From contig CAWULT010000005.1 in NCBI GenBank assembly GCA_963923455.1, positions 3,003 through 67,002 of the forward strand: a stretch of 64,000 nt of DNA, given 5' to 3'. The notes under the pieces were generated by a model. That model made no database searches, had not been told where the DNA came from, and saw only the letters and a list, made by a program, of their open reading frames with translations. The stretch is from an uncultured bacterium. GTDB lineage: Bacteria; Acidobacteriota; Vicinamibacteria; Vicinamibacterales; UBA2999. Below, piece after piece: positions 32,563 to 58,562 of this stretch (position 1 is its first letter; each line of letters starts with the position of its first letter). The translations under genes were made by a program, and so were the position numbers.

Positions 32563-33468
32563 GTGGCCCAGCCCTTCGTCATCTCGGTCATCCTGAACAC
32601 GAACCGGCGCGACGACACGCTCGAGTGTCTCGCGTCGCTGGTGGCGTCCGACTATGGCCACCACAAGGCGATCGTCCTCGACAACGCCTCGACCGACGGT
32701 TCGGTCGAGGCGATCCGGTCACGGTTCCCGCAGGTCGAGATCGTCCGGTTGACCGATAACCTCGGGTATGCCGGCAACAACAACGTGGGCATCGCGCACG
32801 CGATGGCGCAGGGCGCCGACTGGGTGTTCGTGCTCAACGAGGACACGGTGCTGGCGCCGGACTGCCTGCGCAGGCTCGTCGAGACGGGTGAGGGGGATCC
32901 GCGGATCGGCGTGGTCGGGCCGATGGTGTACCACCACGACGAGCCCGACGTCATCCAGTCCGCTGGCGGCGCCCTGAGCCGCTACTGGAACTCGGTGCAC
33001 ATCGGCCAGAACGTCCGTGACGCCGGGCAGTACGTCCAGCCCCACGACGTCGACTGGATTTCCGGGTGCGCCATCATGGTCCGGCGCGGCGTGATCGACG
33101 CCGTCGGCGTGATCGACGTCCGCTACTTCTACTTCTGGGAGGAAACGGAGTGGTGCATTCGCGCCGGCCGGGCCGGCTGGCGGATCGTCCAGGTGCCGGC
33201 CGCCAGGCTGTGGCACAAGGGCGTGCAGCGCGACTACCGGCCGAAGCCGACCGTGACGTACTACGCCACGCGGAACCGGCTGCTGACGCTGGCGAAGCAC
33301 CGGGCGCCGCTGCACGTGTGGCTGGTCGTCGTGCTGCAGATCGCGCGGACCCTGACCAGTTGGACCGTGAAGCCGAGGTGGCGGGAGATGCGCGAGCACC
33401 GGGCCGCCATGCTGCGCGGCGCCACCGATTTCCTTCGGGCCAGGTGGGGTGGCCCCGTCCGGCTGTGA
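32563..33468 (+). CDS. GT2 glycosyltransferase
   Basis: Probable GTG start at 32563, just downstream of the epimerase stop. Motifs are FVISVILNTNRRDDTLECL, IVLDNASTDGS, NLGYAGNNNVG and YFYFWEETEWCIR. Confidence 0.8.
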   Translation: MAQPFVISVILNTNRRDDTLECLASLVASDYGHHKAIVLDNASTDGSVEAIRSRFPQVEIVRLTDNLGYAGNNNVGIAHAMAQGADWVFVLNEDTVLAPDCLRRLVETGEGDPRIGVVGPMVYHHDEPDVIQSAGGALSRYWNSVHIGQNVRDAGQYVQPHDVDWISGCAIMVRRGVIDAVGVIDVRYFYFWEETEWCIRAGRAGWRIVQVPAARLWHKGVQRDYRPKPTVTYYATRNRLLTLAKHRAPLHVWLVVVLQIARTLTSWTVKPRWREMREHRAAMLRGATDFLRARWGGPVRL

Positions 33469-33493
33469 CCGGACTCGCGGCGATGCACCAGTC

Positions 33494-34348
33494 ATGACTC
33501 CACTTCCGCCCTCGGTCGTCTACACGCCGGGCTCTCAGGTCCGGTCCCCACTGTCGCTGCTCGCGGCGATCTGGCGCGACATGATCGAGTCGCACGAGCT
33601 GTCGTGGCGCCTCTTCGTCCGCGACGTCTCCGCCCAGTACCGCCAGAGCCTGCTCGGCGTCGTCTGGGCGTTCGTGCCGCCGATCGTCACGAGCCTGATC
33701 TTCGTCGTGCTGCAGTCGCGCAACGTCGTGGACTTCGGCGAGGTCGACATCCCGTATCCGGTGTACGTGCTGGTCGGGGCCCTGCTCTGGCAGATGTTCG
33801 TCGAGGCGATCAACGCGCCGCTCAAGACCGTCACGGCCGCCAGGCCGATGCTGGCGAAGATCAACTTCCCCCGGGAGGCGCTCGTCGTCTCCTCGTTCTA
33901 CATGGTGCTCTACGGGGTGGCGATGAAGCTGGTCGTGATCCTGGCGGTCCTGCTGATCTTCGGCGTGCCGTTGCACTGGACGCTGCCGGCGGCGCTCGGA
34001 CCGATCCTGATCCTCGTCTTGTGCGGCCTGTGCCTGGGGCTGCTCGTCACGCCGTTCGGCATGCTCTACGGTGACGTCGCCTCGGGCCTGCCCGTGGCGA
34101 CGCAGGTGCTCTTCTTCGTCACGCCGGTCGTCTACGTGCCGCCGCAGACGTTTCCGTTCTCGCTCATCGGCACCATCAATCCGGTGAGCCCGCCACTGGT
34201 CGCGAGCCGCGACCTGCTGACGAAAGGCGTGCTGACCAACCCCGAGGCCCTGGCCGGACTGACGGGCGTGGTCCTCGTCGGCCTGGCCGTGGCCCTCGTG
34301 ATCTACCGGGCCGCGATGCCGATTCTCATCGAACGGACGAGCGCGTGA
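33494..34348 (+). CDS. ABC-2 type polysaccharide exporter permease (Wzm/KpsM/TagG-like)
   Basis: About 285 aa with about 6 TM helices. It lies immediately upstream of, and overlaps, the ATPase gene. Confidence 0.8.
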   Translation: MTPLPPSVVYTPGSQVRSPLSLLAAIWRDMIESHELSWRLFVRDVSAQYRQSLLGVVWAFVPPIVTSLIFVVLQSRNVVDFGEVDIPYPVYVLVGALLWQMFVEAINAPLKTVTAARPMLAKINFPREALVVSSFYMVLYGVAMKLVVILAVLLIFGVPLHWTLPAALGPILILVLCGLCLGLLVTPFGMLYGDVASGLPVATQVLFFVTPVVYVPPQTFPFSLIGTINPVSPPLVASRDLLTKGVLTNPEALAGLTGVVLVGLAVALVIYRAAMPILIERTSA

Positions 34349-35592
34349 TGCAGGACACGCTGGTGACCGTCGACGGGGTCGGCAAGAAGTTCTGCCGCAG
34401 CCTGAAGCGCTCGCTGTGGTACGGGTTGCAGGACCTCGGGTCCGAGCTGGCCGGCCGCGGCGATCGGCCGCGCGAACTGCGCAAGGGCGAGTTCTGGGCC
34501 GTGAAGGACGTCTCCTTCCGGCTTCACCGCGGCGAAACGCTGGGCCTCATCGGCCACAACGGTGCGGGCAAGACGACCCTGCTCAGGATGCTCACGGGCC
34601 TGATCAAGCCCGATGCGGGGCGCATCGAGGTGGTGGGGCGCCTCCAGGCGCTCATCGCGCTCGGCGCCGGGTTCAACCCGCTGTTGACCGGCCGTGAGAA
34701 CATCTACGTCAACGCGTCGATCCTGGGCATTCCGAAGCAGCAGATCGACCGCATCTTCGACCGCATCGTCGATTTCGCCGGCGTCGAGGAGTTCATCGAC
34801 ATGCCGGTGCAGAGCTACAGCTCCGGCATGGCCGTGCGGCTGGGCTTCTCGATCGCGGCGCACCTTGACCCCGACATTCTGCTCGTGGACGAGGTCCTGT
34901 CGGTCGGCGACCTGGCGTTTCGCACCAAGTGCCAGGTGCGCATCAACGAGATGAAGGAGCGGGGCGTCGCCATCATCCTGGTGTCGCACAACCTCCACAC
35001 CATCAGCCACGTCTGCACGCGCGGCGTGGCGATCGACCGCGGCCGGGTCCTGTTCGACGGTGACACCGAGACCGCGATCGACGTCTATCGTGAGTCGCTG
35101 ATCGCGAGGAACGGCAAGGCCGCGGCCGAGGGGCTCCGCGGCGGGACGGGCGAGATCCGGATCGCCCGCGTCGAGGTGCTCGGCCGCGACGGCACTCCGA
35201 CGCCCGTGCTGGGCGTCGGCGACTTCGTGACGCTGCGGCTGCACTATCACGCGCACCAGCCCGTTGTCGATCCGGTGTTCAACCTGGCGGTGCACGTGCT
35301 GAACGGCAACCAGGTCACCGGCGTTCGCACCGACGTCGACGGGCTGCGCCTCGGGCGCCTCGAGGGCGAGGGATACGTCGACGTCGAGATTCCGCACCTG
35401 AACCTGCTGCCGAACGTGTACACGGTGGACGCGGTGGCGTTTCACGCCGACGGCGTGACCTTCTACGATCGGCTCAACGCCGCCGCGAGCCTCAAGATCC
35501 GGGGCGGGCTGCCCATCAACGGCACGGTCTACCTGCCCCATGAATGGCGGCGTGGAGACGTCCGGCAGGACGCGCTGGCGGGGTCACGCTGA
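34345..35592 (+). CDS. ABC polysaccharide exporter ATPase with a C-terminal extension (Wzt/TagH-like)
   Basis: Walker A is GHNGAGKTTLLRML, the signature is YSSGMAVRLGFS and Walker B is ILLVDEVLSVGD. An extra ~165-aa beta-rich C-terminal domain follows from about 35095, as in Wzt carbohydrate-binding domains. Confidence 0.9.
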   Translation: MMQDTLVTVDGVGKKFCRSLKRSLWYGLQDLGSELAGRGDRPRELRKGEFWAVKDVSFRLHRGETLGLIGHNGAGKTTLLRMLTGLIKPDAGRIEVVGRLQALIALGAGFNPLLTGRENIYVNASILGIPKQQIDRIFDRIVDFAGVEEFIDMPVQSYSSGMAVRLGFSIAAHLDPDILLVDEVLSVGDLAFRTKCQVRINEMKERGVAIILVSHNLHTISHVCTRGVAIDRGRVLFDGDTETAIDVYRESLIARNGKAAAEGLRGGTGEIRIARVEVLGRDGTPTPVLGVGDFVTLRLHYHAHQPVVDPVFNLAVHVLNGNQVTGVRTDVDGLRLGRLEGEGYVDVEIPHLNLLPNVYTVDAVAFHADGVTFYDRLNAAASLKIRGGLPINGTVYLPHEWRRGDVRQDALAGSR

Positions 35593-35593
35593 C

Positions 35594-36802
35594 GTGTCGA
35601 ACGAACCCGTGTTCATCGTGGGCGTCCAGCGGTCGGGCACGACGCTCCTGGCGGCGATGCTGGCCGCGCACAGCCGCCTGAGCTGCGGGCCCGAGACGCA
35701 CTTCTTCCGGCGGCTCGCCGCCGCAGACGTCGCCCGGCTCTGCCAGCGGGCGACGTGGCCGGAGGCGGCCGCGGACTTCCTGGCCTCGATCACCCACGTC
35801 GGCTTCTCGAGCGACGCCCGGGTGCCGCTGCTGGCCAAGTATCAGCTCGATCCGGCCGTGGTCCGCGCGTACCTCGCGGCGCACGAGCCGCGGGTCGCGA
35901 GCATCCTGGGCGCGGTCACCGAGCCGTACATGCTGGCCCGCCAGAAGGCCCGGTGGGTCGAGAAGACGCCCGATCACCTGCTGCACCTGCCGGCGATCCG
36001 CGAGCACTTTCCGCGGTCGCCGATCATCCGCATCGTCCGCGACCCGCGCGACGTGTCGCTGTCCCTGATGAACGTGCCCTGGGGGGTGCGCTCCTTCGCC
36101 GAGGGCCTCTTCTACTGGGAGCGCCTCGACCGCGCGAGCCGGCAGTTCTTCACCACCGACACGGGCTCCCTGACCGTCCGCTTCGAGGACCTGGTGTCGG
36201 CGCCCGAGGCGACGCTGGGCCGCATCTGCGACTTCATCGGCGAGCGCTTCGAGGAGGGGATGCTCGACACGTCGAGCACCGGCGCCGAGATCAACGCCCG
36301 CAACGTGCCGTGGAAGGAGAAGGTCGCCAAGGCCGTCGACCGCAGCCGCGTCGAGGCCTGGCGGGCCAGCGTGTCGCCGCGGGAAGACCGCATGGCCGAG
36401 GCCCTGCTCGGGGACCGGCTGCAGGCGTTCGGGTACGCCCGCGACCATGCCTTCTCGCACGTGGCCGATGTACTGCCGTCGATTGCGCTCGCGGAACGGT
36501 ACCCGGGGGCCATCGAGACCCTCGCCGCAGAGGGCGTCCGGTTCTGGCGTGAGCGTCCGGACGAGCCCACGAGCGTCACGGTGTACCTGGGCGACCCGGG
36601 CAGCCGCGACTGGTTCGGCGGCGCCGCCCCGATCGGCCCGGCGCGTGTCCTCGCAGACGTGGCGCGGGCGGCGGCATCGGGACGACGCCTGTACTGGGTC
36701 ACGGACACGGCCGCGAACCAGTGGACGGGTTCGGTTCCGTTCCTGCTGAAGACGTGTCTCACGCCCTTCCGCGTACAAGGGTGCGCGCCGGTGAGCGCGT
36801 GA
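35594..36802 (+). CDS. PAPS-dependent sulfotransferase
   Basis: GTG 35594 lies 1 nt after the wzt-like stop (alternative ATG at 35540). The 5'-PSB-like motif is FIVGVQRSGTTLLAAML and the 3'-PB-like motif is IIRIVRDPRDVSLSL. Confidence 0.8.
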   Translation: MSNEPVFIVGVQRSGTTLLAAMLAAHSRLSCGPETHFFRRLAAADVARLCQRATWPEAAADFLASITHVGFSSDARVPLLAKYQLDPAVVRAYLAAHEPRVASILGAVTEPYMLARQKARWVEKTPDHLLHLPAIREHFPRSPIIRIVRDPRDVSLSLMNVPWGVRSFAEGLFYWERLDRASRQFFTTDTGSLTVRFEDLVSAPEATLGRICDFIGERFEEGMLDTSSTGAEINARNVPWKEKVAKAVDRSRVEAWRASVSPREDRMAEALLGDRLQAFGYARDHAFSHVADVLPSIALAERYPGAIETLAAEGVRFWRERPDEPTSVTVYLGDPGSRDWFGGAAPIGPARVLADVARAAASGRRLYWVTDTAANQWTGSVPFLLKTCLTPFRVQGCAPVSA

Positions 36803-38382: not shown

Positions 38383-39590
38383 TCAGCATCATCGTCCCGG
38401 CGTACAACCAGAGCCACTATCTGGAGGCGGCCGTCCAGAGCGCGCTCGCGCAGACCTACGCCGACGTCGAGGTGATCGTCGTCGACGACGGCTCGACCGA
38501 CGACACGCGCGCGGTGGCGCAGCGCCTGACCGATTCCCGCGTCCGCTACGTGTACCAGGAGAACCGCGGCCTGCCGGCCGCGCGGAACACGGGCATCCGT
38601 CACGCGCGCGGCTCGCTGCTGTCGTTCCTCGATTCAGACGACCTCTTCCTGCCCGACAAGGTTCGGCTGCTCCTCGCGGCGATGGAGGCAGACCCGTCGC
38701 TCGGGCTGGTCGCCGGCCAGGCAGTCGTGATCGACGAGGGTGGCCGCCCGGTGGGCGAGGTGTTCGACGCAGAACTGCCGGCCGACGGTGCGGAACTGCT
38801 GCTGGGCAATCCACTCCACGTGGGCAGCGTTCTGCTGCGGCGCGATTGGCAGGAGCGCGTGGGCCTGTTCGACGAGACGCTCCGCTCGTACGAAGACTGG
38901 GACCTGTGGCTGCGTCTGGCCCGCGCCGGCTGTCCGATGGGGTGGGTTCCGAGGCCGGTCTCGCAGTACCGGTTCCACCTGGCGCAGATGACGCGCATCG
39001 GCCGCCAGATGACCACGGCGACGTTCGCCGTGCTGGAGAAGACCTTCTCCGATCCGTCGCTGCCGGCGGCATGGCGTGCCCGGAAGGATGCCGCCTACAG
39101 CCGCGCCTACCTGCGGGCGGCAGCCCAGGCGTACACCGCCTCGGCGTTCGACCTGGCCGAAGACTGCATGCGCCGCGCGGTTGCCCACGATCCCGGTCTG
39201 GTCGCGGCCGATGCCCAGCCGATCGCCGACATCGTCGCCGGGTGGGCCAACCACGTGAAGACCGCGGACGCGATGGGCCTGCTCGAAGGTGTCTACGACC
39301 ATCTGCCGGCGGAGCTGGCGGCGCTGCGCGCGCGACGGTCGCGCGACCTCGCCCGCGAGGCCCTGCAGCTGACCTTCGCGGCCTACCAGCGCGGCGACAG
39401 GGCGGCCGCCCGGACGTTCGTCCGTCGTGCCGTCGGGCTGCAGCCGAGGGCGGCCCTCGACCGGGGCGTTCTCTCGATCCTCCTGCGCACATTCATCCCC
39501 GGGACCGGGGCCACTGCGGGCGGGGACACGCCCGCCTCGGCGCGCTGGGTCCCTGGTTCCGGCCGCGTGCCTTCTGAAGGGAACTCATGA
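38370..39590 (+). CDS. GT2 glycosyltransferase with a helical C-terminal domain
   Basis: Motifs are VSIIVPAYNQSHYLEAAVQSALAQTYADVEVIVVDDGSTDDT and LDSDD. It overlaps the previous gene by 13 nt. Confidence 0.85.
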   Translation: MPPLVSIIVPAYNQSHYLEAAVQSALAQTYADVEVIVVDDGSTDDTRAVAQRLTDSRVRYVYQENRGLPAARNTGIRHARGSLLSFLDSDDLFLPDKVRLLLAAMEADPSLGLVAGQAVVIDEGGRPVGEVFDAELPADGAELLLGNPLHVGSVLLRRDWQERVGLFDETLRSYEDWDLWLRLARAGCPMGWVPRPVSQYRFHLAQMTRIGRQMTTATFAVLEKTFSDPSLPAAWRARKDAAYSRAYLRAAAQAYTASAFDLAEDCMRRAVAHDPGLVAADAQPIADIVAGWANHVKTADAMGLLEGVYDHLPAELAALRARRSRDLAREALQLTFAAYQRGDRAAARTFVRRAVGLQPRAALDRGVLSILLRTFIPGTGATAGGDTPASARWVPGSGRVPSEGNS

Positions 39591-40324
39591 GCCCCCTGAT
39601 TCCACGTTTCCAGGTCACTCCGTTCGTCATCCTCTTCGTCGAGCGCGCCGGCAGCACGTACCTGATCACGGCCCTGAAGTCGCACCCGGAGATCACCGCC
39701 CTGACGGAGAAGTTCGACGCGATGCGCCAGGAAGGCAAGGGCGCCACCGAGCAGCTCGCGTGGGCGCGGGAGTTCCTGACGCCGCCGCTCGTCGGGCAGC
39801 ATCGCGCCATCGGCTTCAAGACGAAGCTCGTCGACGTGCTCGACCGGGAGGGGTTCGCCGACCTCGTGCGCGCGCGCAAGTGCAAGATCATCAAGATGCG
39901 TCGCCTCAACACGGTGAAGGCGGTCGTCTCGACGCTGAACGCGCGCCGGCAGTGGCAGGCCTCCGGCAACTGGAACCTGCTGAGCGAGGCGACCCGCCTC
40001 TCGGAACTGACGGTCGACCTCGACGAGTTCGACCGCATGCTGCACGAGCGGGAGGAGCTCGACCGCGACCTGGAGGACTACGTCAAGAGCCTCGGGCTGC
40101 CGACGCTCGAGCTGTACTACGAGGAGCTGCTGCGCGACGAGAAGGGCTTCGTCGACCGCACGCTGGGCTTCCTCGGCGTGGAGCGCGGGCCGCTCCAGAG
40201 CATGACCCTCAAGAACACGAAGGACGACCTGCGGGAGGCGATCGCCAACTTCGACGCGCTTCGCGCCAAGTACACCGGCACGAAATACGAGGCGCTCTTC
40301 GACGAGGTGCTGGCCCCGGCGTAG
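39587..40324 (+). CDS. Small sulfotransferase (NodH/Stf0-like)
   Basis: 245 aa with an ATGA overlap. FVILFVERAGSTYL (P-loop-like PAPS 5'-phosphosulfate site) and IKMRRLNTVKAVVS resemble NodH/Stf0 motifs. The call is made by eye only. Confidence 0.55.
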   Translation: MSPLIPRFQVTPFVILFVERAGSTYLITALKSHPEITALTEKFDAMRQEGKGATEQLAWAREFLTPPLVGQHRAIGFKTKLVDVLDREGFADLVRARKCKIIKMRRLNTVKAVVSTLNARRQWQASGNWNLLSEATRLSELTVDLDEFDRMLHEREELDRDLEDYVKSLGLPTLELYYEELLRDEKGFVDRTLGFLGVERGPLQSMTLKNTKDDLREAIANFDALRAKYTGTKYEALFDEVLAPA

Positions 40325-40371
40325 GGTCCCAGCCCCAGACACGACGAGAGGAGGATAGCGCTACGCCCGGG

Positions 40372-42204
40372 TTGGTGGGTTTCGTGAAGCCGGCGCTCGC
40401 CGGCGACCAGGCAGGGGAGTTGCTCGGCCGGATGGCACGTGCGCTCGAGTCGGCGCCGCGCTTCGACGCGGTGCTGCACCACGAGCCTGGCACCGGCGTC
40501 GGGTGCGTCGCGCTGAAGACGGCCGAGGCGGCCCAGCGCCTGACCTGGAACACCGACCGCAGCGTCGCCGTGGCGCTCGAAGGGGAGCTGTTCGACCTCG
40601 AGCCGGTCGCGCGGCGCCTCGGCGAGCCGGTCGGGGCACGCACGCAGGCGGCGCTGGTGCTGGCGTTGTACGAGCGGTTCGGCGGCGACTTCGCCCGCGA
40701 TCTGAACGGCGCGTTCGCGGCAGCCATCTGGGACCGCCGGGAGCGGACGCTCCTCGTCGTCAACGATCGCCTGGGCCAGTGCCCCGTCTACTACGCGCAG
40801 GCCGGGGGCGGCCTGCTGTTCGCGTCTGGCGTGCGCGCGGTGCTGGCCGACCCCGCCGTGTGCCGGACCGTCGACCGGGTCGCGATCAACCAGTTCCTGG
40901 TCTTCGACCATGCGCTCGGGGACCGTACGCTGCTCGCATCCGTCCGGCTGCTGCCCCAGGCCTCCGTGTTGCGGTGTCGCGACGGACACGTCGACATCCG
41001 ACCGTACTGGACGCTGCAGTACCCGGACGCGTACGAACCGCGGTCCGAGGCGGACTACGTAGAGGCCTTCACGCACCATATGCGCCAGGCCGTTGCGCGC
41101 CAGGCGCCGAACGGCCGCCGCGCGGGCGTACTGCTGAGCGGGGGGCTCGACTCGCGCGTGATTCTCGGCGCGCTCGCCGAGCGCGGCGAGGCGGTCGAGA
41201 CGCTGACCTTCGGCATACCCGGCTGTGACGACGCGCGCGTGGCCGCCGAAGTCGCCGCGACCGTGGGCTCGACGCATCGCTTCGTGGAACTCCGGCCCGA
41301 CTGGCTGTCGTCGCTGGCCGAGGAAGCCGTCCGCAGCACCGACGGCCTGGGCAACCTCGTCAACCTGCACGCGCTCGCGCCGCTCGCATCGACGTCGGGC
41401 TACGCGCCCGTCCAGTACAAGGGCTTCCTCGGCGACGCGCTGCTCGGGTACGCGCTGACCCGCGGAATGTGGGGCGGCTACCGGCCGGACGACCGCTACC
41501 GCGTGCACCTCGACGCCCACCGCGGGCACGGCGTGGTGAACTACGAGGCCGACGAGCAGGCCCGGCTGTTCACCGATGCATTCCGCGCCGACGTCGGCGA
41601 CGGCGTGATGGAGGCCTACCGCGCGGGGTTGGACAGGGCGGGAAGCGCGCAGCTCGCCAACCAGCGGCTGTTCTTCGACCTGACCCAGCGTGTCCCGCGG
41701 ATGACGCTCAACGGCGTCGAGGTGGCGAGAAGCCACGCCACCGTCCGCCTGCCGTTCTGCGACAACGACCTGGTCGACTTCATCCTGCAGGTGCCGCCCG
41801 GCTTCCTGTTCGAGCGGTATCTGCCCAGGCAGTCGTTCATCCGGCACTACCCGCGGCTGGCGCAGATCCCGCTGGAGGGCACGGGCCGTCCGATGACGTC
41901 CTGCGCGCGGGACGTCTGGATCCAGATGCGGAGCCTGGCCTCGTGGCACCTGCGCCGCCGGGGCCTCGGATGGGTGCTGCCGGATACGGTGCGCCCGTAC
42001 AAGGACTACAACGGGTGGTTCAGGACGAACCTCCGCCCATGGGTCGAGGGCCTGCTGCTGGACCGGCGCGCGCTCGATCGGGGCTACTTCCAGCCAGCGT
42101 TCGTCCGCCAGCTGCTTGCCGAGCACGACGCGGGAGCTAATCACGCCGTACGAATCGGGGCCCTGCTCACGATCGAGCTCTGGCACCGGCAGTTCGCGGA
42201 CTAG
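40372..42204 (+). CDS. Asparagine-synthase-family protein with a degenerate glutaminase site
   Basis: The start is TTG 40372 or GTG 40375, the first start codons after the previous stop. The N-terminus reads (M)VGFV where AsnB has MCGI. LEGELFD replaces NGEI(F/Y)N. The synthetase PP-loop LLSGGLDSR is intact. Confidence 0.75.
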   Translation: MVGFVKPALAGDQAGELLGRMARALESAPRFDAVLHHEPGTGVGCVALKTAEAAQRLTWNTDRSVAVALEGELFDLEPVARRLGEPVGARTQAALVLALYERFGGDFARDLNGAFAAAIWDRRERTLLVVNDRLGQCPVYYAQAGGGLLFASGVRAVLADPAVCRTVDRVAINQFLVFDHALGDRTLLASVRLLPQASVLRCRDGHVDIRPYWTLQYPDAYEPRSEADYVEAFTHHMRQAVARQAPNGRRAGVLLSGGLDSRVILGALAERGEAVETLTFGIPGCDDARVAAEVAATVGSTHRFVELRPDWLSSLAEEAVRSTDGLGNLVNLHALAPLASTSGYAPVQYKGFLGDALLGYALTRGMWGGYRPDDRYRVHLDAHRGHGVVNYEADEQARLFTDAFRADVGDGVMEAYRAGLDRAGSAQLANQRLFFDLTQRVPRMTLNGVEVARSHATVRLPFCDNDLVDFILQVPPGFLFERYLPRQSFIRHYPRLAQIPLEGTGRPMTSCARDVWIQMRSLASWHLRRRGLGWVLPDTVRPYKDYNGWFRTNLRPWVEGLLLDRRALDRGYFQPAFVRQLLAEHDAGANHAVRIGALLTIELWHRQFAD

Positions 42205-46797: not shown

Positions 46798-46802
46798 CGG
46801 AT

Positions 46803-47948
46803 ATGGACTTCTCCTGGTCTGACGATCAACTGGCCTTCAAGGACGCCGTGGTGGAGTTCGCGCGGCAGCAGCTCAATCACGACATCATCGAGCGCGACCG
46901 GGACTCACGATACTCGCGCGAGCTGTGGAAGGAGTGCGCGAAGTTCGGCATCCAGGGACTGCCGTTCCCGGAGGAGTACGGCGGTGGCAACGCCGACATC
47001 CTCACGACGATGCTGACGATGGAGGGCATGGGTTACGGCTGCAAGGACAACGGCCTCATCTTCGGCCTCAACGCGCAGATGTGGGCGGTCCAGATGCCGA
47101 TCCTGACGTTCGGCACCGACGAGCAGAAGCGGAAGTACCTGCCCGGTCTCATCGGCGGCGATCTGGTCGGCGCCCACGGCATCTCGGAGCCCGACTCGGG
47201 CTCCGACGCCTTCAGCCTGCGGACGCGCGCGCAGAAGGTGGACGGCGGCTACGTGCTCAACGGCACGAAGACGTTCGTGACGAACGGGCCGATGGCCGAC
47301 CTTCATCTCGTGTTCGCCACGGTCGATCCGGCCCGCAAGATGATGGGCGTCACCGGCTTCCTGGTCGAGACCGGCACTCCAGGGTTCGTCATCGGCCCGA
47401 AGATCGACAAGATGGGCCTCCGCACGTCGCCGATGTCGGAACTGATCCTGACCGACTGCTTCCTGCCGGAGTCCAGCCGGCTGGGCCGGGAGGGGATCGG
47501 GTCGCGGATCTTCGGTGATGCGATGGAGTGGGAGCGGGCGTGCATCCTCGGCAGCCACCTGGGGGCGATGCAGCGCCTGATCGAGCGGTGCGTCGAGCAC
47601 TCGCGCGATCGCAAGCAGTTCGGCGAGTCGATCGGCCGATTCCAGTCGGTGTCGAACCGCATCGTCGACATGAAGGTGCGGCTCGAGACCGCCCGCCTGC
47701 TGCTCTACAAGGTGGCGTGGCTGAAGAAGACGGGGAAGCCGGCGGTGATGGAGGCGGCGCTCGCGAAACTGTATCTGAGCGAGGCGTTCGTCCAGAGCGG
47801 GCTGGACGCCGTGCGCACGATGGGTGGCTACGGGTACACGACGGAGTACGAAGTGGAGCGCGACTTCCGCGACTCGATCGGAGGCATCCTCTACTCCGGG
47901 ACCTCCGACATCCAGCGCAACATCATCGCGAGGTTGATGGGCCTCTGA
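46803..47948 (+). CDS. Acyl-CoA dehydrogenase-family flavoenzyme
   Basis: 381 aa starting at ATG 46803. Motifs are GAHGISEPDSGSDA, TKTFVTNG and GGYGYTTEYEVERDFRD (catalytic-Glu region). Confidence 0.85.
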   Translation: MDFSWSDDQLAFKDAVVEFARQQLNHDIIERDRDSRYSRELWKECAKFGIQGLPFPEEYGGGNADILTTMLTMEGMGYGCKDNGLIFGLNAQMWAVQMPILTFGTDEQKRKYLPGLIGGDLVGAHGISEPDSGSDAFSLRTRAQKVDGGYVLNGTKTFVTNGPMADLHLVFATVDPARKMMGVTGFLVETGTPGFVIGPKIDKMGLRTSPMSELILTDCFLPESSRLGREGIGSRIFGDAMEWERACILGSHLGAMQRLIERCVEHSRDRKQFGESIGRFQSVSNRIVDMKVRLETARLLLYKVAWLKKTGKPAVMEAALAKLYLSEAFVQSGLDAVRTMGGYGYTTEYEVERDFRDSIGGILYSGTSDIQRNIIARLMGL

Positions 47949-50356: not shown

Positions 50357-50422
50357 GCCGTCCGCGACGAGCCTCGAGCGGCAGGGCGTCAACCCTGCCG
50401 TTCGAGGTGTCGCACGCCTCAC

Positions 50423-51508
50423 ATGAACCGCCAGTACAGCGCGATGAGCGGAGCGGCGATCGTCCTGATCGTCCTCAATCACGCCATCCATTTCGGGTTG
50501 CAGGCTTCGCCGGCGAGCGGTCCGTGGCCGTACATCCTGACGGTGCTGCAGGCGCTGGGCGGCTTCGCCGTGCCGGCCTTCTTGTTCATTTCCGGGGCGT
50601 TCCTGTCCTACTCGGCCGGGCGGCTCTCGCCGGAGTTCATCAAGACCAACCTTGGCCGGCTCCTCTGGCCGTACCTGATCTGGTCGCTGCTGTTCTACGG
50701 CCTCGTCTTCGTGGTCGGCGCGGAGCGCTACTCGGTGGCGGGCTACGCGAAGAACCTGATCGTCGGCTATCCCTACCACTTCGTGCCGCTGCTCGTGTTC
50801 TGGTACCTGTCGGCGCCGCTGCTCGTGAAGATCGGACGGCGGCACGCCTGGCCGCTGCTGGTGGGCATTGCCGCGTACCAGGCGGTGCTGCTCGTCGGGC
50901 GGTATCCCGATCTGTTCGGCGTGCCGGGCCTGGCGCCGTGGGCGAAGCTGGTGCGCGTGCCCGTGTTGGCGACGCCGATGTCGGACTGGGCGGTCTTCTT
51001 TCCGCTGGGGCTCGTGGTCAGCATGCACGACCGGGAGCTCAAGCCGAGACTCATGGGCCGTCGGCTGCTGATGGCGCTGCTGACCGGGTCGCTGCTGTGC
51101 CTGGGGCTGCTCGACGCGTTCAGGATGGTGTCGGCCCCGTGGGCGCGGTTCGTGGCGCCGCTGCCCCTGATGTTCGTGCTGCCGGTGATCAGCCGTGACG
51201 CCATCCCGTACTGGCGCGGTCTCGAGGCTCTCGGCAAGCGAAGTTACGGCATCTACCTGAGCCACTTCATCGTGATCAATCTGGCGGCCTACGCGGTATC
51301 GGCCCTTGGTCTGGCGGCGGGCATCGGCGCCGTGCTGGTGTATCCGGCGCTGCTGATCGTGGCGATCGGCGTGCCCGTGCTGATGATGGATGTGCTGACA
51401 CGCCCGGTCTCAGTGCGGCGCGTCTACCGGCACCTGTTCGGGATCGCCCCGCCCCCACCGCCTGCGCCGGTTCAGCGCTCCGGCGCCAAGGCGCCGATGC
51501 CGGCCTAG
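50423..51508 (+). CDS. Acyltransferase family 3 (AT3) membrane acyltransferase
   Basis: 361 aa, about 10 TM helices. Motifs are AAIVLIVLNHAIHFG and a C-terminal YGIYLSHF. Confidence 0.8.
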   Translation: MNRQYSAMSGAAIVLIVLNHAIHFGLQASPASGPWPYILTVLQALGGFAVPAFLFISGAFLSYSAGRLSPEFIKTNLGRLLWPYLIWSLLFYGLVFVVGAERYSVAGYAKNLIVGYPYHFVPLLVFWYLSAPLLVKIGRRHAWPLLVGIAAYQAVLLVGRYPDLFGVPGLAPWAKLVRVPVLATPMSDWAVFFPLGLVVSMHDRELKPRLMGRRLLMALLTGSLLCLGLLDAFRMVSAPWARFVAPLPLMFVLPVISRDAIPYWRGLEALGKRSYGIYLSHFIVINLAAYAVSALGLAAGIGAVLVYPALLIVAIGVPVLMMDVLTRPVSVRRVYRHLFGIAPPPPPAPVQRSGAKAPMPA

Positions 51509-51520
51509 CCGCACCCCCGG

Positions 51521-52633
51521 ATGGTCAGGCGGCTGCTCGCACTGAACGGGATTGCGGCCATCTTCGCCGTGGTCCATCACTCGGTGAACTGGGGCATCAC
51601 GGCGATGTTCTGGTGGGCGCCGCAGTATCGCACGGGGGCATCTGTTCCGGACTACGCGGCGTTGGGCGGGCTGCAGTACTTCGCCATCCGAGCCATCGAC
51701 CAGGTGGTCGTGTCGGCCGTGCCCGCGTTCCTGTTCGTGAGCGGCTACTTCGTGGCGAGCAGCGTCGGCGCCCGCCCGACGCTCGCGTGGGACAACGTGG
51801 TCAGCCGTGTCAGGACGCTGTTGCCTGCGTACCTGCTGTGGTCGCTGCTCGTGATCGGGTTCAACATGGTCAACGGCGCGCAGTACACCTGGTCTCGGGT
51901 GGCCTGGGCGCTGGTGACCGGCGGTGCCGCGGCGCCGTTCTACTACGTGCCGCTGGTCGTCGAGCTCTACGTGCTTTCCCGCTGGCTCGCGCCATGGGTC
52001 CGCCGTTCCGCGGGCCTGGTGCTGCTGGTGACGGGCCTCGCCCAGGCGTCGGTGGCGCTCGTCAGGAGTTGCTCCGTCGCCGCCCTCGACGCCTGCACGC
52101 CCGATCACGCCGTCGCGCGCCTGGCGGTGAATTCCCAGTTGCTGTCCTACTGCTTCTGGTTCGCGCTCGGCCTGGCGGCCTCGTTCCACATGCCCGCGTT
52201 CAAAGCCACGCTGCGTCGATTGCGCCCAGTGCTGCCCTGGCTGCTGGTCGCACTGTTCGTGGCGGCTGCAGGAGAGTGGGAGGTCGTGCGGAGGCTGTCG
52301 GGCCGCACGTGGGTGCCGAGCGGCGTGGGAATCGGCGACAACCTGTTCGAGCTCGCGCTGCTGCTGACGTACCTCGCGCACGATGACGGGCCGCTCCCGT
52401 GGGCGGCCCCGCTCGAGCGGGTTGGGGTGATGTCGTACGGCATCTACCTCGTGCACATGCCCGTGCTCGAAGTGGCGGCCCGGGTGCTCTATCACCTCAG
52501 CCCGTTTCTGCTCGCCTATCAGGTGGTGCTGATGGCCGCCGTCTCGGCGGTTGGCGTGGGGGCTCCGATGCTGCTGATGAGGTTCGCGAAGAGTTCCCCC
52601 CTGCGCCGGTACTACGCGTACGCCTTCGGGTAG
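51521..52633 (+). CDS. Acyltransferase family 3 (AT3) membrane acyltransferase
   Basis: 370 aa. Motifs are MVRRLLALNGIAAIFAVVHH and YGIYLVHMP. It is paralogous to 30362-31468 and 50423-51508. Confidence 0.8.
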   Translation: MVRRLLALNGIAAIFAVVHHSVNWGITAMFWWAPQYRTGASVPDYAALGGLQYFAIRAIDQVVVSAVPAFLFVSGYFVASSVGARPTLAWDNVVSRVRTLLPAYLLWSLLVIGFNMVNGAQYTWSRVAWALVTGGAAAPFYYVPLVVELYVLSRWLAPWVRRSAGLVLLVTGLAQASVALVRSCSVAALDACTPDHAVARLAVNSQLLSYCFWFALGLAASFHMPAFKATLRRLRPVLPWLLVALFVAAAGEWEVVRRLSGRTWVPSGVGIGDNLFELALLLTYLAHDDGPLPWAAPLERVGVMSYGIYLVHMPVLEVAARVLYHLSPFLLAYQVVLMAAVSAVGVGAPMLLMRFAKSSPLRRYYAYAFG

Positions 52634-53004: not shown

Positions 53005-54081
53005 ATGCGCGTGAGGACGTCCGTCAGAGGAACGCTTGTCTGTGTGCTGCTGCTGCTCCCCGCGGTGGCGCGTGCCCAGGCGATCGTGGTCGATCACACC
53101 TCGATCGGCCTGTTCGACCAGATACCCGACCAGTACTTGCAGGCCGCCCGCAACCTGCGGTTCCTGTTTATGGACCGGTCGGTGGGCGTCAACACGAACG
53201 ACGCACTGAACTGCCTGACGGCCTCCGCGTACGGGACCTCGGCGTCCCCGTGCCGGCAGGATTACCAGTTCGTCAACGGCGCCTGGCAGCAGACGCTGCG
53301 CAACGATGCCGCAAAGGCGGCCGGGCAGGTGCACCCGTACATCGACTTCTCGCCGAGCCCGACCAGGTACAACCGCAGCAACTGGGACTTCTACCTGTTC
53401 TACGGCCCCTGGGAGACGATGACCTCCAACTTCGTCTCGGGACTCCACAACTCGTCGATCCCGGCCCAGGAGCATCCGACCAACGCGAACGTCCAGGTGA
53501 ATCCGCTGAACTACGACGTCGTGTCGTTCCAGTTCAGCTACCTCAACGTCGACAACGGCAGCCGGATCATGGAGTTCTTCTCGAACCGCTCCGGTGAACT
53601 GAACGACGCCTACGAGCTCGAGCGCGAGATCGCCGACCACCTCACGTCGAACGGCAACCGCAAGTTCGTCTACTTCACGACGAGCCTGGCGCGTTCCATC
53701 GGCACCCAGGTGTCCATGGACTTCAATGCGCGGATGCGCGAGTGGTGCCGGACGACCAACTGCATCCTGTTCGACTTCGCCGACATCGAGGCGTATGACA
53801 TGGCCGGCCGTCCGTGCTACGACGACCGCGACGGCGTGCCGTACACGCAGCCGAACAACGCCAGCCTCAACGAGAACTACCCGGACGACGGGCTGAACAT
53901 CCCGGCGATCTGCCAGGAGAAGACGACCGAGGCCATCAACGGGCACCTGACGACGGCCCAGGGGAACATCAGCATCGCCAAGGGGCTGTGGGTGCTGCTG
54001 GCCCGGATCGCCGGCTGGAACCCGGGCGGGACCTCTCAGGGTCCGGCCCCGCCCACCAATATCCGGATTCTGGGCGAGTGA
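53005..54081 (+). CDS. Secreted hypothetical protein
   Basis: The start is ATG 53005 or GTG 53011, the latter 6 nt after GGAGGA. The signal peptide is [23 protein letters not shown]. It has several Cys pairs and no motif I recognise. Confidence 0.5.
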
Positions 54082-54089
54082 GTTCGGGC

Positions 54090-54749
54090 ATGATGCCGCT
54101 GGACTTCCTCCGGTACCCGGAGGAAGAGCAGCGGGCCAGGGCGCGCGCGTTCAGGCAGGAACTGGGCCGGCGCCGGACGGTCCGGGATTTCAGCAACCGG
54201 CCCGTCCCGCTCGACATCCTCGAGGACTGCATCGCGGCGGCTGCGACGGCGCCTTCCGGGGCGCACAAGCAGCCGTGGACCTTCGTGCTGGTCACGGACC
54301 CCGTGCTGAAGTCGAGGATTCGGGCGGCGGCGGAGCAGGAAGAGCGCGCGTTCTACGGCCATCGCGCACCCGAGCGCTGGCTTCGCGATCTCCAGCCGTT
54401 CGGCACCAACGCCAGCAAGCCGTTCCTCGAGATCGCCCCAGCCCTGATCGTCGTGTTCGCCCAGAAGCACGGCAGCGACACCGACGAGCGGCACTACTAT
54501 GTGAACGAGTCTGTCGGCATTGCCGTGGGGTTCCTGCTGGCCGCCCTCCATCACGCCGGCCTCGCCACCCTCACCCACACGCCGAGCCCGATGCAGTTCC
54601 TGGCCGACGTGCTCGAGCGGCCGGCCAACGAGCGTGCGTTCGTGCTCATCCCGGTTGGCTATCCCGCGGATGGGGCCCTGGTACCGTCCATCGAGCGCAA
54701 ACCGCTCTCCGAGGTCCTCGTCGTCCGGGCCCCGGCTCCGGGCCGCTAA
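54090..54749 (+). CDS. Nitro-FMN-reductase superfamily protein, iodotyrosine deiodinase (halotyrosine dehalogenase)-like
   Basis: 219 aa. [61 protein letters not shown] and LIPVGYP...ERKPL are collinear with IYD as I remember it. Confidence 0.7.
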
Positions 54750-54877: not shown

Positions 54878-56116
54878 ATGAAGATTGGCTACGTCATGCA
54901 GGAGGGAGGGCCGGACGTCCGGCAGCTCCCCCGCACCGGCCCTGCGAACCACGTCCTGAAGGTCTTTGCCGAACTGCAGAGGCTGGGGCACGACGTCCGG
55001 CTGCTGGCCCGGTGGGACGGTGTCATCTGGAAGTCGGACGACCTGGTCACGTACGAGCCCGTCGTCGTCCGGGACTGGGACTCGGGGCCGAGGCGGGCGC
55101 TCGAGCGTCTCGTGCGGGGCCTGCAGGCCAGGCTCGCCCTGCCGTACTTGAACCTCTTCGAGAGCCTCCGCTTCGCCAGCGCGTGCCGGCAGGAACTCGG
55201 CGATCGGGACGTCTACTACGAACGCATGGGCTGGATGGGTTACGGCGCCGGGCTGTGGTCGCGGCGATCGGGCATTCCCCTCGTGCTCGAGGTCAACAAC
55301 GGCGACTTCGTCACCGAGCTCGAGATGCTCGGCGTGGCGCCCACCGGCTTCCAGCGCTGGCTGGCCGTGCGCCTGATGGCCGCCGCAGTCGGCCGCGGCC
55401 GGATGGTCGTCGCCACCGGAGAGGGACACCGCCGGCGCTTCATCGAGCACTGGCGCGTGACGCCCGACACCGTCGTCACCATCGAGAACGGCAGCGAGCT
55501 CGTGGAGCTGCTCGACCGCGGCCAGCTGGGTCCGTTCACCGGGCGCAGCCGCGGCTCCGCGCCCGTCGAGGTCGTGTTCGTCGGCGCCTTCGAGCCCTGG
55601 CACGGGGTGCTGAAGCTGCTCGAGGCGATGGAGGGCGTCGTGGCGGCGGGCGCCAACGTCCATCTCGTGCTGATCGGATCGGGCACCCTGCAGCGGCAGA
55701 TCCGTGAGTTCATCGACGCGCGCGGCCTCGCGCCGCACGTCACGATGACCGGCCAGCTGCCGATCGACCAGGTCGCGGCTCGCCTGGCCCACGCCGACAT
55801 CGGCGCCGCGCCGTACTGCGGGTGGATGGAATACTCCGGCCTCAAGCTGTTCGACTACAAGGCGGCCGGCCTCGCGATCATCGCGTCCGGCGAGAACGGC
55901 CAGCCCGATACCCTCTCGCACGAACGCACCGCGCTGATCGTACCGCCGTGCGACGTCCAGGCGCTGGCCGCCGGCATTGTCCGCCTGGCCGGCGACGAGG
56001 CGCTGCGCCGGTCGATGGGCCATGCCGGACGCCTGGAGGCTGAAGAGCAGCATTCCTGGCGCCACACGGCCCTGCAGCTGCAGGGCGTCTTCGAACGGGT
56101 GACCCGTGGGCGCTGA
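54878..56116 (+). CDS. GT4 (GT-B fold) glycosyltransferase
   Basis: 412 aa beginning MKIGYVMQEGGPD. The C-terminal half has the GT-B donor-binding pattern (VFVGAFEPWHG..., KLFDYKAAGLAIIAS). Confidence 0.75.
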   Translation: MKIGYVMQEGGPDVRQLPRTGPANHVLKVFAELQRLGHDVRLLARWDGVIWKSDDLVTYEPVVVRDWDSGPRRALERLVRGLQARLALPYLNLFESLRFASACRQELGDRDVYYERMGWMGYGAGLWSRRSGIPLVLEVNNGDFVTELEMLGVAPTGFQRWLAVRLMAAAVGRGRMVVATGEGHRRRFIEHWRVTPDTVVTIENGSELVELLDRGQLGPFTGRSRGSAPVEVVFVGAFEPWHGVLKLLEAMEGVVAAGANVHLVLIGSGTLQRQIREFIDARGLAPHVTMTGQLPIDQVAARLAHADIGAAPYCGWMEYSGLKLFDYKAAGLAIIASGENGQPDTLSHERTALIVPPCDVQALAAGIVRLAGDEALRRSMGHAGRLEAEEQHSWRHTALQLQGVFERVTRGR

Positions 56117-56159
56117 GCCGGCGTCCTCTCCAGTTCCGCCGCCCGCCGGGCGGCGTGGC

Positions 56160-57239
56160 ATGGTCAGCGTCGTGATGCCGGTGTTCAATGGCGCCGCCCT
56201 GATCCGCCAGTCGCTCGAGAGCGCCCTGGCGCAGACCTATGCGAACTGGGAGCTCATCGTCGTCGACGACGGCTCGACCGACGACACGGCGGCCATCGTC
56301 GCGCAGTACACCGACCCGCGCATCCGCTACGTTCACCAGGAGAACCGGGGGCAGGCCGCCGCGCTGAACCGGGGCCTCGACGCCGCCGAGGGCGAGTACG
56401 TCACGACACTCGACGCCGACGATTGGTACGAGCCCGCGGCGCTGGCGTGTCGCGTCGACCTGCTCGTGCGCGATCCGGGGATCGGCGTCGTGTACGGCAA
56501 CGGCGTCTACCGTTACGCCACCGGCGACACGGGGCCGAAGTTCACCGAGCTGATGCCGGCGGGCGTGTCGGGCGACGTGTTCGACACGCTGATCGTGGCG
56601 CCGTTCTACGGCACCGGGGCGGCGGTGATCGTCCGGCGCAGCGTGCTCGCCACGTACGGCATCCGGTACGATGAGGCCATCTCCTGGTGCCAGGACTGGG
56701 ACATCTACATCCGGCTGGCGGCCGTGACACGGTTCGGTTTCGTCGACGACGTCGTAATCAACTATCGTGTCCACGCCGACGGCATGACCGTGACGATGCC
56801 GAGCGAGCGCCGGCTGACGTCGCTGTTCCGGCTGCGCGACAAGGTGCTGGCCATGCCCCGTTTCGCCGCGGTGCCGGCGGCGCAGCAGTACGCGTTCTTC
56901 TACGACTACCTCACCCGGGATCTCGACGGCCGCGTCGAGCCGCAGTCCGCGGTGCTGGCCTGCCCGGCCTTCGCGGCCATGCCGCCCGACTCACGGGCCA
57001 GACTGCTTCGTCTGACGGCCAACGGGAGCCTCCTCGAGGGCGGCGCGCCGGCACCCATTCGATCGTGGCTGAGGGCCGCGCTCCGCATTCGTCCGGCCGA
57101 TCCCAAGACCTGGCTGGTGTACCTGCTGGTGTGCCTCAGCCCCGCCGCCGCCCGTCGGGTGGTCGCCGCCTGGCAGGGCCGCCGGCAGCCGGACGCGCCG
57201 GTGTCCCCGTTCGAGCAACTCTCGGCCGGTCAGTCGTAG
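56160..57239 (+). CDS. GT2 glycosyltransferase with a C-terminal helical domain
   Basis: Starts at ATG 56160. Motifs are VSVVMPVFNGAALIRQSLESALAQTYANWELIVVDDGSTDDT and LDADDW. Confidence 0.85.
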   Translation: MVSVVMPVFNGAALIRQSLESALAQTYANWELIVVDDGSTDDTAAIVAQYTDPRIRYVHQENRGQAAALNRGLDAAEGEYVTTLDADDWYEPAALACRVDLLVRDPGIGVVYGNGVYRYATGDTGPKFTELMPAGVSGDVFDTLIVAPFYGTGAAVIVRRSVLATYGIRYDEAISWCQDWDIYIRLAAVTRFGFVDDVVINYRVHADGMTVTMPSERRLTSLFRLRDKVLAMPRFAAVPAAQQYAFFYDYLTRDLDGRVEPQSAVLACPAFAAMPPDSRARLLRLTANGSLLEGGAPAPIRSWLRAALRIRPADPKTWLVYLLVCLSPAAARRVVAAWQGRRQPDAPVSPFEQLSAGQS

Positions 57240-57278
57240 AATGGTCTGGGTGGCCCCTGACAGCGTCGCGGGGAGCGG

Positions 57279-58469
57279 GTGGTGAGCCGCGGCATCACGC
57301 TGCCCGAGGGTGCCCGCTTCACCTGCCAGAGCTGCGGCAGGTGCTGTCAGGGCTGGGACGTGCCGGTCGACGCCGAGACGGCGGCCCGCCTGCGCGCACA
57401 CGACTGGGGCACGGAGCCCTTCGAGCCGATGGGCTCGACCGGCCAGTTCCGGATTCGCCAGGTCGACGGGCGGTGCTACTTCCTCCGTCCGGACAACCAC
57501 TGCCGCATCCACGTCGAACTGTCCTACGACGCCAAGCCTCCGGTGTGCCGGGGGTTTCCGCTGAGCGTGCTCGAAGTGGAGGGGCGCCAGTTCGCGCGGC
57601 TCAGCTACTGGTGTCCCACGGTTGTGGCGAACACGGGCAAGCCGCTCGAACAGCAGGGTCGGTGGGTCCGCGACACAGCCCGCCACGCCGACGTGCGTAC
57701 GGCTGCGCTGCGGCTCGAGCCCGGGGTGGAGATCTCGGGCGGAGACTTCGACCGATTGCACCACGCCCTGCGCGAAGTGGTGCACGACGGTGCCCATCCG
57801 ATCGGCGACCGGGTCGCGGCACTGGCCGGTCTGGTGCGCCGGCTGGCGTCGTCCCCCGGATTGCCTGTCGAGGCGGCGGTGCAGCAGGCTCGGCGTGATG
57901 GCATCGGCCGCTTGGCCGCCGATGCGCGTCGGGGAGGCGCCCCTGCCGCCGGGCGCCGCGCGATCTCGCTGTATCTGCTGCACGATCGGCCGCGCGGACG
58001 CATGGCCGGCATCCGGCGTTTCGCCGAAGTCGCGCTGTTCACGGCCGGGCTGGCCAGGCTTCGCACGCGCGCGGTGCCGGCCTGCGCGAGCCGGCGAATG
58101 GCTCGCCGGGTGACGTTCCAGCCCTCGCGGGTTGCCGGTGATCTGCTGGCCCGCTACCTCGCCTCCAAGATTGATTCCCGCCGCTACGTTGCCGGCGAGG
58201 CAACCGTGGTCGGGGGCATCAATCTGCTGCTGGTGGCCTACGGGTTGATCAGCGAATTGTCCCGCCTGCGGGCGGCGACGGACCGGCGCACCGAGTGCAG
58301 TGACGAAGACGTCACGCTGGCCGTGCAGGCGGCCGACCTGCTCGTCGTGGAGCACTCGGACCTGCGGCAGGGCGCCGTGCAGCGCCGCCTCGTCGACGGC
58401 GTGCTCGAGCGCCCAGATCTCGGAGCCGACGTCCTGGCGTTCGTCCACCCGGCCGGCCGCCCCTCCTGA
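57279..58469 (+). CDS. YkgJ/UPF0153-type cysteine-cluster (CxxCxxCC) protein with a long C-terminal extension
   Basis: The N-terminus has FTCQSCGRCCQGW, GRCYFL..DNHCRIH and PPVCRGFP. About 250 further residues have no recognisable motif. Confidence 0.6.
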   Translation: MVSRGITLPEGARFTCQSCGRCCQGWDVPVDAETAARLRAHDWGTEPFEPMGSTGQFRIRQVDGRCYFLRPDNHCRIHVELSYDAKPPVCRGFPLSVLEVEGRQFARLSYWCPTVVANTGKPLEQQGRWVRDTARHADVRTAALRLEPGVEISGGDFDRLHHALREVVHDGAHPIGDRVAALAGLVRRLASSPGLPVEAAVQQARRDGIGRLAADARRGGAPAAGRRAISLYLLHDRPRGRMAGIRRFAEVALFTAGLARLRTRAVPACASRRMARRVTFQPSRVAGDLLARYLASKIDSRRYVAGEATVVGGINLLLVAYGLISELSRLRAATDRRTECSDEDVTLAVQAADLLVVEHSDLRQGAVQRRLVDGVLERPDLGADVLAFVHPAGRPS

Positions 58470-58495
58470 CGCCCGTCCGCCCCTGAAAACGACAC

Positions 58496-58525
58496 GAGGG
58501 CATCCGGCTCACGCCGGACGCCCTC
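58496..58525. terminator. Bidirectional terminator hairpin between convergent genes
   Basis: GAGGGCATCCGGC-tcac-GCCGGACGCCCTC forms a 13-bp stem with one mismatch, which is a G-U wobble on the minus-strand RNA. It sits between stops at 58469 (+) and 58563 (-). Confidence 0.5.
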
Positions 58526-58562
58526 GCGAGGTCCGCAGGTCCGCACCCCGGAGCCGGGTCCT

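Follow-up and report, generated by a model that had tools for sequence, protein, structure and literature searches.

An iodotyrosine deiodinase homologue within a polysaccharide locus carrying a halogenation cassette in an uncultured acidobacterium

The 64,000-nucleotide stretch of DNA considered here (the window; part of contig CAWULT010000005.1 of an uncultured member of the Vicinamibacterales, Acidobacteriota) encodes at 54090-54749, on the + strand, a protein of 219 amino acids whose sequence and structural model place it securely in the iodotyrosine deiodinase (IYD) subgroup of the FMN nitroreductase superfamily. The gene lies inside a large polysaccharide locus that also carries a flavin-dependent halogenase. 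We favour, with moderate confidence, the explanation that it encodes a canonical dehalogenase of free halotyrosine that is carried in, and co-expressed with, the polysaccharide operon and that possibly clears free halotyrosine from the cell. An earlier reading made from the DNA letters alone (the sequence-only reading) had likewise recognised the IYD, and had suggested that halotyrosyl or halophenol chemistry ties it to the halogenase.

Identity and active site of the IYD homologue

Translation of the window from the ATG at 54090 yields 219 residues followed by a stop codon. A longer frame opening with a GTG at 53814 was also offered by the list of open reading frames (ORFs) and was ruled out by third-position GC content and homologue lengths. 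The GC content at third codon positions is 0.89 within 54090-54749 versus 0.50 in the extension (53814-54089), the extension runs into the preceding gene and the homologues recovered in a protein search are 214-225 amino acids long; for these reasons the ATG at 54090 is taken as the start.

In Pfam, the general nitroreductase domain alone is recognised in the protein (PF00881, 4e-22, residues 27-191). A phmmer search against the Protein Data Bank (PDB) returned the IYD of Haliscomenobacter hydrossis (HhIYD, 5KO7) as the best match (E-value 4e-77), followed by the IYDs of mouse (2e-56), human (2e-54) and Thermotoga (5e-27), whereas the top entry outside the IYDs scored 5.6e-17 and BluB (2ISJ) 4e-4 at 19% identity. 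Over the whole fold, identity amounts to 57% with HhIYD (206 residues) and 46% with human IYD. No NCBIfam model passed its cut-off: the top one, for BluB (TIGR02476), reached 55.5 bits against a cut-off of 150, while the NfsA and NfsB models (NF008033 and NF008275), whose cut-offs are 223 and 227 bits, gave 18.3 and 23.6 bits and covered the N-terminal FMN motif only. An AlphaFold2 (AF2) model of the protein, built on 27 homologues, has a pLDDT of 88.9, and the first 25 PDB matches that Foldseek found for it are all IYDs, led by the iodotyrosine-bound form of HhIYD (5KO8, TM 0.90), with BluB in 49th place (TM 0.73). BluB and generic nitroreductases are ruled out by the NCBIfam scores, the PDB E-values and the fold ranking alike, and the earlier preference for an IYD over these subfamilies is thereby upheld. 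The claimed collinearity with human IYD is likewise borne out by the identity across the whole fold, and the peptide strings quoted for the protein are all present in its translation; the human strings quoted for comparison match the PDB human sequence save for one residue (VVVKDP, not VVVQDP).

What makes IYDs halotyrosine-specific dehalogenases is a Glu/Tyr/Lys triad together with a Thr near FMN N5: the triad, near-universal in IYDs, contacts the halotyrosine zwitterion from the E1 lid, and the Thr, positioned on lid closure, promotes the one-electron steps of dehalogenation, while a contact from the backbone NH of an Ala to the phenolate is usual, not essential (PMC8668982). The HMMER alignment with human IYD is free of gaps through the lid and pairs E85, Y89 and K110 of the window protein with E157, Y161 and K182 of the human enzyme, A58 (in the motif APSGAH) with A130, and T164 with T239. 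The sequence-only reading had named the same triad and Thr as retained, and E, Y, K and T are indeed the letters at these positions. None of the five residues varies among the nearest homologues (120/120). Residues D172, T178 and Y212, which PMC8668982 quotes, served as a check on the human numbering and fall where it predicts, and the title of PDB entry 5YAK, a Thr239 mutant, is consistent with the numbering of human T239. Every IYD-defining feature that lends itself to testing in a sequence or a model is found in the 219-residue protein.

By analogy with the solved homologues, the protein would work as an FMN-dependent homodimer and strip I, Br or Cl reductively from free 3-halo-L-tyrosine. 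E85, Y89 and K110 in the E1 lid would clamp the alpha-amino acid zwitterion of the substrate, the phenolate would be bound through the A58 backbone NH and the 2'-OH of FMN, and closure of the lid would put T164 beside FMN N5 and favour one-electron dehalogenation chemistry. As the zwitterion-binding triad is conserved, the substrate is expected to be a free halogenated amino acid; this need for a free zwitterion would in turn exclude a carrier-bound or polymer-bound group and make a halopyrrole carboxylate an unlikely substrate.

HhIYD (5KO7, 5KO8, 5KRD) is of the same length class, has the E1 lid and the E2 loop, conserves the triad and the Thr and shares with the window protein an identical LTHTPSP motif and one identical 12-residue motif; the E2 loop of the window protein is, however, three residues shorter, and the genes of the Bacteroidota relatives lie among housekeeping genes, whereas the window gene is surrounded by polysaccharide genes in a locus with a halogenase. 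Human and mouse IYD (DEHAL1; 4TTC, 3GFD) have the same fold (TM 0.89-0.90), but the window protein is without their N-terminal membrane anchor or extension and its role cannot be thyroid-hormone iodide salvage. The IYDs of Drosophila and Thermotoga neapolitana resemble it in being non-chordate enzymes that act on halotyrosines generally, and they show the family at work in the clearance of halotyrosines beyond thyroid biology (PMC11126969, PMC8668982). Unlike the window protein, the Thermotoga enzyme (TnIYD) has no E2 loop, and it matches at 5e-27 only. BluB, a 5,6-dimethylbenzimidazole synthase, shares the fold of the nitroreductase superfamily, but the window protein scores far below its cut-off. 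The enzyme type is itself already known and ordinary, and as far as its sequence tells, the window protein is without specialisation compared with other bacterial IYDs.

The polysaccharide locus and its halogenation cassette

The window has a G+C content of 63-73%, and nearly all genes from 552 to 58469 are on the + strand. Pfam and NCBIfam scans identify this array as one large polysaccharide locus, in agreement with the exopolysaccharide (EPS) locus described in the sequence-only reading. It encodes a priming sugar transferase, many glycosyltransferases of families GT2 and GT4, a UDP-GlcNAc 2-epimerase, three AT3 acyltransferases, a cadherin/LamG surface protein and an acyl-CoA ligase scoring above the cut-off set for the exosortase-A-associated model TIGR03098. 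The IYD gene lies inside this array and not at its edge, since further + strand genes (a GT4, a GT2 and a CxxCxxCC gene) lie downstream of it and the only strong terminator-like hairpin is found beyond them (Table 1). Between 53011 and 58469 no terminator-like site was detected except for two weak intragenic ones, and the stop codon of the upstream secreted-protein gene is 8 bp before the IYD start. The IYD gene is probably co-transcribed with the polysaccharide locus.

The halogenase, which the sequence-only reading had placed about 24 kb from the IYD gene, is indeed found there. Its best PDB match is CndH (3E1T, 3.4e-76), followed by RadH and CmlS; it carries the motifs GGGPAG, GWIWAIP and GDAAAFLDP and a Lys aligned to K76 of CndH, and by these sequence marks it is a genuine flavin-dependent halogenase. 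It forms part of a cassette (25000-31468) in which genes for a carrier protein, an adenylation enzyme and an FMO-like flavoprotein lie just upstream of it and a gene for an AT3 acyltransferase just downstream. The ten-residue specificity code of the adenylation enzyme, read off an alignment to a GrsA fragment, is DLFYLALVCK. We take this to be the code found in enzymes that activate proline for the formation of pyrrole; the string was not confirmed in the literature, in which searches for it and for DLLYLALVCK gave nothing relevant. The product of 46800-47948 scores 448 bits with the PigA model and 409 bits with the RedW model, both under the curated cut-offs, and 301 bits with the next family of acyl-CoA dehydrogenases (ACAD). 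PltF is a prolyl-carrier-protein ligase, and PigA and RedW are prolyl-carrier-protein dehydrogenases.

The cassette looks to be directed at proline and pyrrole because of the PltF-like adenylation enzyme, the PigA/RedW-like dehydrogenase and the PltA-like halogenase of related loci described below. The route that it suggests leads from proline to a prolyl-S-carrier, a pyrrolyl-S-carrier and a halopyrrolyl-S-carrier and from there to transfer onto the polymer, and the locus would, on its sequence, predict a polysaccharide O-acylated with halogenated pyrrole-2-carboxylate. No report of a polysaccharide bearing this group was found in the literature. The signals for the substrate type are mixed: cassette genes are PltF-, PigA/RedW- and PltA-like, yet the halogenase of the window itself is nearest to CndH and RadH, a character that appears to allow, to some extent, for a phenolic substrate. 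The substrate of CndH is a tyrosine-derived unit, and RadH is a phenol halogenase. The halogenation cassette is a more unusual object in the window than the IYD gene.

Other genes of the + array bear on the polymer and its export. Wzx/Wzy-type machinery is present, with genes for a Wzc-like kinase (552), a Wzy-like protein (6507) and two Wza-like exporters (18057-20402), and the same array holds an ABC-type exporter (Wzm/Wzt) at 33371-35592; the two types of machinery may represent two fused polysaccharide pathways or one hybrid locus. Two sulfotransferases, one B12-binding radical SAM enzyme and two AsnB-like amidotransferases (35459-36802, 39578-40324, 4752-6506, 22606-24777 and 40327-42204) suggest a heavily modified polymer that is sulfated, amidated and possibly methylated.

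Table 1. Positions of features in the window and, in the last row, in contigs of close relatives.
Feature	Position	Strand	Basis or remark
Carrier protein	25000-25338	+	PF00550
Stand-alone adenylation enzyme	25339-26907	+	AMP-binding, 1e-91; PltF (6O6E), 3.5e-94
Flavin-dependent halogenase	28680-30359	+	PF04820, 2.9e-40; 23.7 kb upstream of the IYD gene
Acyl-CoA dehydrogenase, PigA/RedW-like	46800-47948	+	Pfam ACAD domains; NCBIfam
Two tandem Acyl_transf_3 (AT3) membrane acyltransferases	50357-51508 and 51509-52633	+	PF01757, 5e-33 and 4.8e-22
Secreted protein of 356 amino acids, weak SGNH/GDSL-like fold	53011-54081	+	AF2 and Foldseek
Codon of A58	54261-54263	+	
Codon of E85	54342-54344	+	
Codon of Y89	54354-54356	+	
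Codon of K110	54417-54419	+	
Codon of T164	54579-54581	+	
GT4	54878-56116	+	Pfam; begins 128 bp past the IYD gene
GT2	56106-57239	+	Pfam
CxxCxxCC/FliB-like protein	57261-58469	+	NCBIfam FliB-like (flagellin lysine N-methylase), weak
Strong terminator-like hairpin, 16 pairs	58493-58528	-	Junction of the + array and convergent - genes
Halogenation block of relatives	L167:4178-6654; L003:13916-16155; L164:13027-15729		PltA/Mpy16-type halogenase directly beside PigA/RedW-like dehydrogenase

Gene order in close relatives and across bacteria

The protein search returned at least 8000 clusters, from which the contigs of close relatives were sampled one by one (11 homologues) and their genes compared by tblastn. 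Among the matches listed, the best homologues are 70-82% identical and stem from soil metagenomes, and the nearest named one belongs to a metagenome-assembled genome (MAG) of the Vicinamibacterales; many of the homologues carry the JGI label iodotyrosine deiodinase. The order of AT3 gene, gene for a protein of the 356-residue type and IYD gene is found in the window itself and in 7 of the 8 relatives in which the IYD is at least 76% identical, which makes 8 of 9 contexts. The gap between the last two genes is often tight or zero, and in L167 the stop of one and the start of the other share a coordinate.

A halogenase of 420 amino acids and a PigA-like dehydrogenase lie at most 7 kb from the IYD gene in each of the five relatives with contigs of sufficient length (P0013, P0030, P0031, P0033 and P0034), the dehydrogenase being 77-79% identical to that of the window. 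This halogenase matches Mpy16, PltA and ChlB4 at about 1e-120 and carries the motif GWCWQIP. All three are halogenases that act on pyrrolyl-carrier protein. The block of halogenase and dehydrogenase is inverted and on the opposite side of the IYD gene in L003 and L164, and the proteins of the 356-residue type are only 40-72% identical among loci and far more diverged than the IYD; judged by these inverted blocks and strongly diverged neighbours, the linkage has outlived both rearrangement and marked divergence. In the low-coverage contig L003, the halogenase (13916-15178) reads GWCCQIP where that of L167 reads GWCWQIP; this and the split neighbour genes in L003 and L164 are probably assembly or sequencing errors and not signs of pseudogenes.

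The 356-residue secreted protein encoded directly upstream of the IYD gene has no Pfam or NCBIfam match. Its family comprises 274 homologues, some of them fused to LamG or dockerin domains, and its gene adjoins that of the IYD in L003, L164, L166, L167, P0030, P0031, P0012 and P0037, where it always comes after AT3 acyltransferase genes. The AF2 model (pLDDT 88.3) matches best 4Q7Q (6e-4), then Axe2, a sialate esterase and PatB, at TM values of only 0.35-0.46. PatB is a peptidoglycan O-acetyltransferase. The AT3 proteins and this SGNH-like protein most plausibly form an extracytoplasmic O-acylation module. As a clue to the function of the IYD the protein was dropped, as it is secreted and belongs with the AT3 genes while the IYD is cytoplasmic.

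Two further neighbours were noted. The CxxCxxCC gene stays near the IYD gene in L002, L003, L164 and P0037, even where polysaccharide genes are absent. In L002 (8764-10648), the closest homologue among the matches listed (82%) lies 170 bp downstream of a gene for DAHP synthase, on the same strand, which is a single case. DAHP synthase opens the biosynthetic pathway of the aromatic amino acids.

A wider scan confirmed at least 574 IYD relatives in GTDB species representatives and at least 554 on metagenome contigs, and 80 loci from each source were examined with 10 kb flanks; the closest relatives are not in the metagenome scan. The proteins of these 160 loci are 53-74% identical to the window protein and represent Myxococcota, Bacteroidota, Planctomycetota, Acidobacteriota and Actinomycetota, among others. 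No polysaccharide-locus genes lie within 10 kb of the IYD gene in any of the 160 loci. Clustering of the 4161 flanking ORFs found lineage-bound housekeeping neighbours only (FabF, RNase III, Mla-type ABC, PurE/PurK). Judged by the numbers of matches in the two scans and of protein clusters, triad-intact IYD genes are very widespread, and their spread far exceeds the "limited number of bacteria" of an earlier account (PMC11126969).

Possible roles of the IYD in the halogenating locus

The role that we favour for the IYD is the scavenging of free halotyrosine, which would be turned into tyrosine and halide; this would benefit a cell in which flavin-dependent halogenases are at work, and the IYD would not be a biosynthetic step for the polymer. 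Several points weigh against it. The closest homologue among the matches listed (P0007, 82%) lies outside any polysaccharide context, with the CxxCxxCC gene kept nearby. In a neighbour-joining tree, all proteins from polysaccharide contexts fall into one clade with P0007 nested inside it, from which one gain and one loss of the context may be deduced; the association with the locus has a single evolutionary origin and could be plain inherited gene order. The halogenase of the window is 23.7 kb off and of another type than the one adjacent to the IYD gene in relatives. Across the wider scan, a true halogenase within 10 kb of the IYD gene was found in none of the loci (0/160), which have housekeeping neighbours instead, so that proximity of the two genes is not general in bacteria; four weak halogenase matches were set aside, as they are without the WxWxIP motif and look like geranylgeranyl-reductase-type flavoproteins. 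We know of no bacterial IYD with an established reductant partner, and the scavenger role is pure inference.

Much the same evidence can be read as that of a passenger, a halotyrosine dehalogenase of the ordinary housekeeping kind that became caught in the locus on one occasion, is kept there by descent and is unrelated to halogenation or to the polymer. The single origin with one loss nested in the clade fits this, as do P0007 and the homologues P0044 (74%) and P0057 (72%), the latter two in unrelated contexts, all of which hold the IYD gene without the locus; elsewhere in bacteria the gene lies beside housekeeping genes, and its product shows no specialisation. It is less easily reconciled with an adjacency that was kept despite inversions and strong divergence of the neighbours and with the tight or overlapping spacing to the upstream gene. 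A chance landing beside halogenases is also unlikely, if marginally so given the number of lineages examined: by a rough, uncomputed estimate, the probability that a random gene lies within 10 kb of a halogenase is of the order of 1e-3, and one case among dozens of independent contexts is no more than marginally surprising. We regard a passenger as a possible, tentatively entertained explanation that is nearly as good as the favoured one, and a halotyrosyl polymer as less likely.

Such a halotyrosyl polymer would follow from the sequence-only reading, in which halotyrosyl or halophenol chemistry ties the dehalogenase to the halogenase; the enzyme would then serve the salvage, proofreading or remodelling of a halogenated substituent of tyrosine type destined for the polysaccharide. 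The two genes do co-localise across the clade, the halogenase of the window is nearest to the tyrosine-directed CndH and close to the phenol halogenase RadH, and the conserved triad implies a substrate with a free amino acid zwitterion. That zwitterion, however, must be free, so that the enzyme would have no action on a carrier-bound or polymer-bound residue, and the genes around it point elsewhere. No tyrosine-activating enzyme was found in the window; a second AMP-binding gene (21117-22745), considered for this part, is instead of the exosortase-A-associated acyl-CoA ligase type, and the sole amino-acid adenylation enzyme is the PltF-like one with the code given above. The dehydrogenase is PigA/RedW-like, the halogenase adjacent to the IYD gene in relatives is of the pyrrolyl-carrier-protein type, and no halogenase accompanies the IYD gene in the 160 other loci. 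The expected co-occurrence of IYD and halogenase genes in relatives was found in the closest clade (5/5, within 7 kb), which is of single origin, and not in independent lineages. The proposed halotyrosyl link between the two enzymes is not supported by these findings, and we consider it improbable.

A related possibility, which we likewise hold to be doubtful, is that the IYD homologue is a dedicated part of the halogenating polysaccharide-decoration pathway and dehalogenates an amino acid made by that pathway, either as collateral damage or as a cryptic intermediate. Bromopyrrole biosynthesis offers a parallel, in that the genes for a flavin-dependent pyrrolyl-carrier-protein halogenase (Bmp2) and a reductive dehalogenase (Bmp8) share one locus. 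Bmp8 has a thioredoxin fold and works on the halopyrrole itself, whereas the window protein is an IYD whose triad points to a free amino acid as substrate.

Very little speaks for a flavin reductase partner of the halogenase or a general nitroreductase: flavin-dependent halogenases need reduced flavin, Pfam and NCBIfam scans recognised no dedicated reductase in the window and some nitroreductase-fold proteins are flavin reductases, but we know of no IYD that uses NAD(P)H directly or releases reduced flavin. An IYD with an open lid does carry out hydride-type nitroreduction (PMC8668982), but the IYD-specific residues, needless for a flavin reductase, are all invariant and the NfsA and NfsB models score far under their cut-offs, which leaves this the least credible of the explanations.

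The IYDs of mouse, human, Drosophila and Thermotoga dehalogenate iodo-, bromo- and chlorotyrosine in vitro, and a role in the control of bromotyrosine was shown in Drosophila, while the natural substrates and the biological function of IYD beyond Chordata are stated as not known (PMC11126969); where bacteria encounter halotyrosine, or from which source, is stated as unstudied (PMC8668982). No paper linking IYD to halogenase clusters or polysaccharide loci, or halogenases to exopolysaccharides, was found in the literature. The value of the finding lies in the genomic context and not in the enzyme, and as this context goes back to one evolutionary event in one small clade, it is a modest lead. 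If the IYD were a dedicated part of the decoration pathway, this would provide, for the first time for a bacterial IYD, a physiological context and an endogenous substrate source. A lineage that carries an IYD gene inside a halogenase operon provides a concrete and testable setting for the role of IYDs in bacteria.

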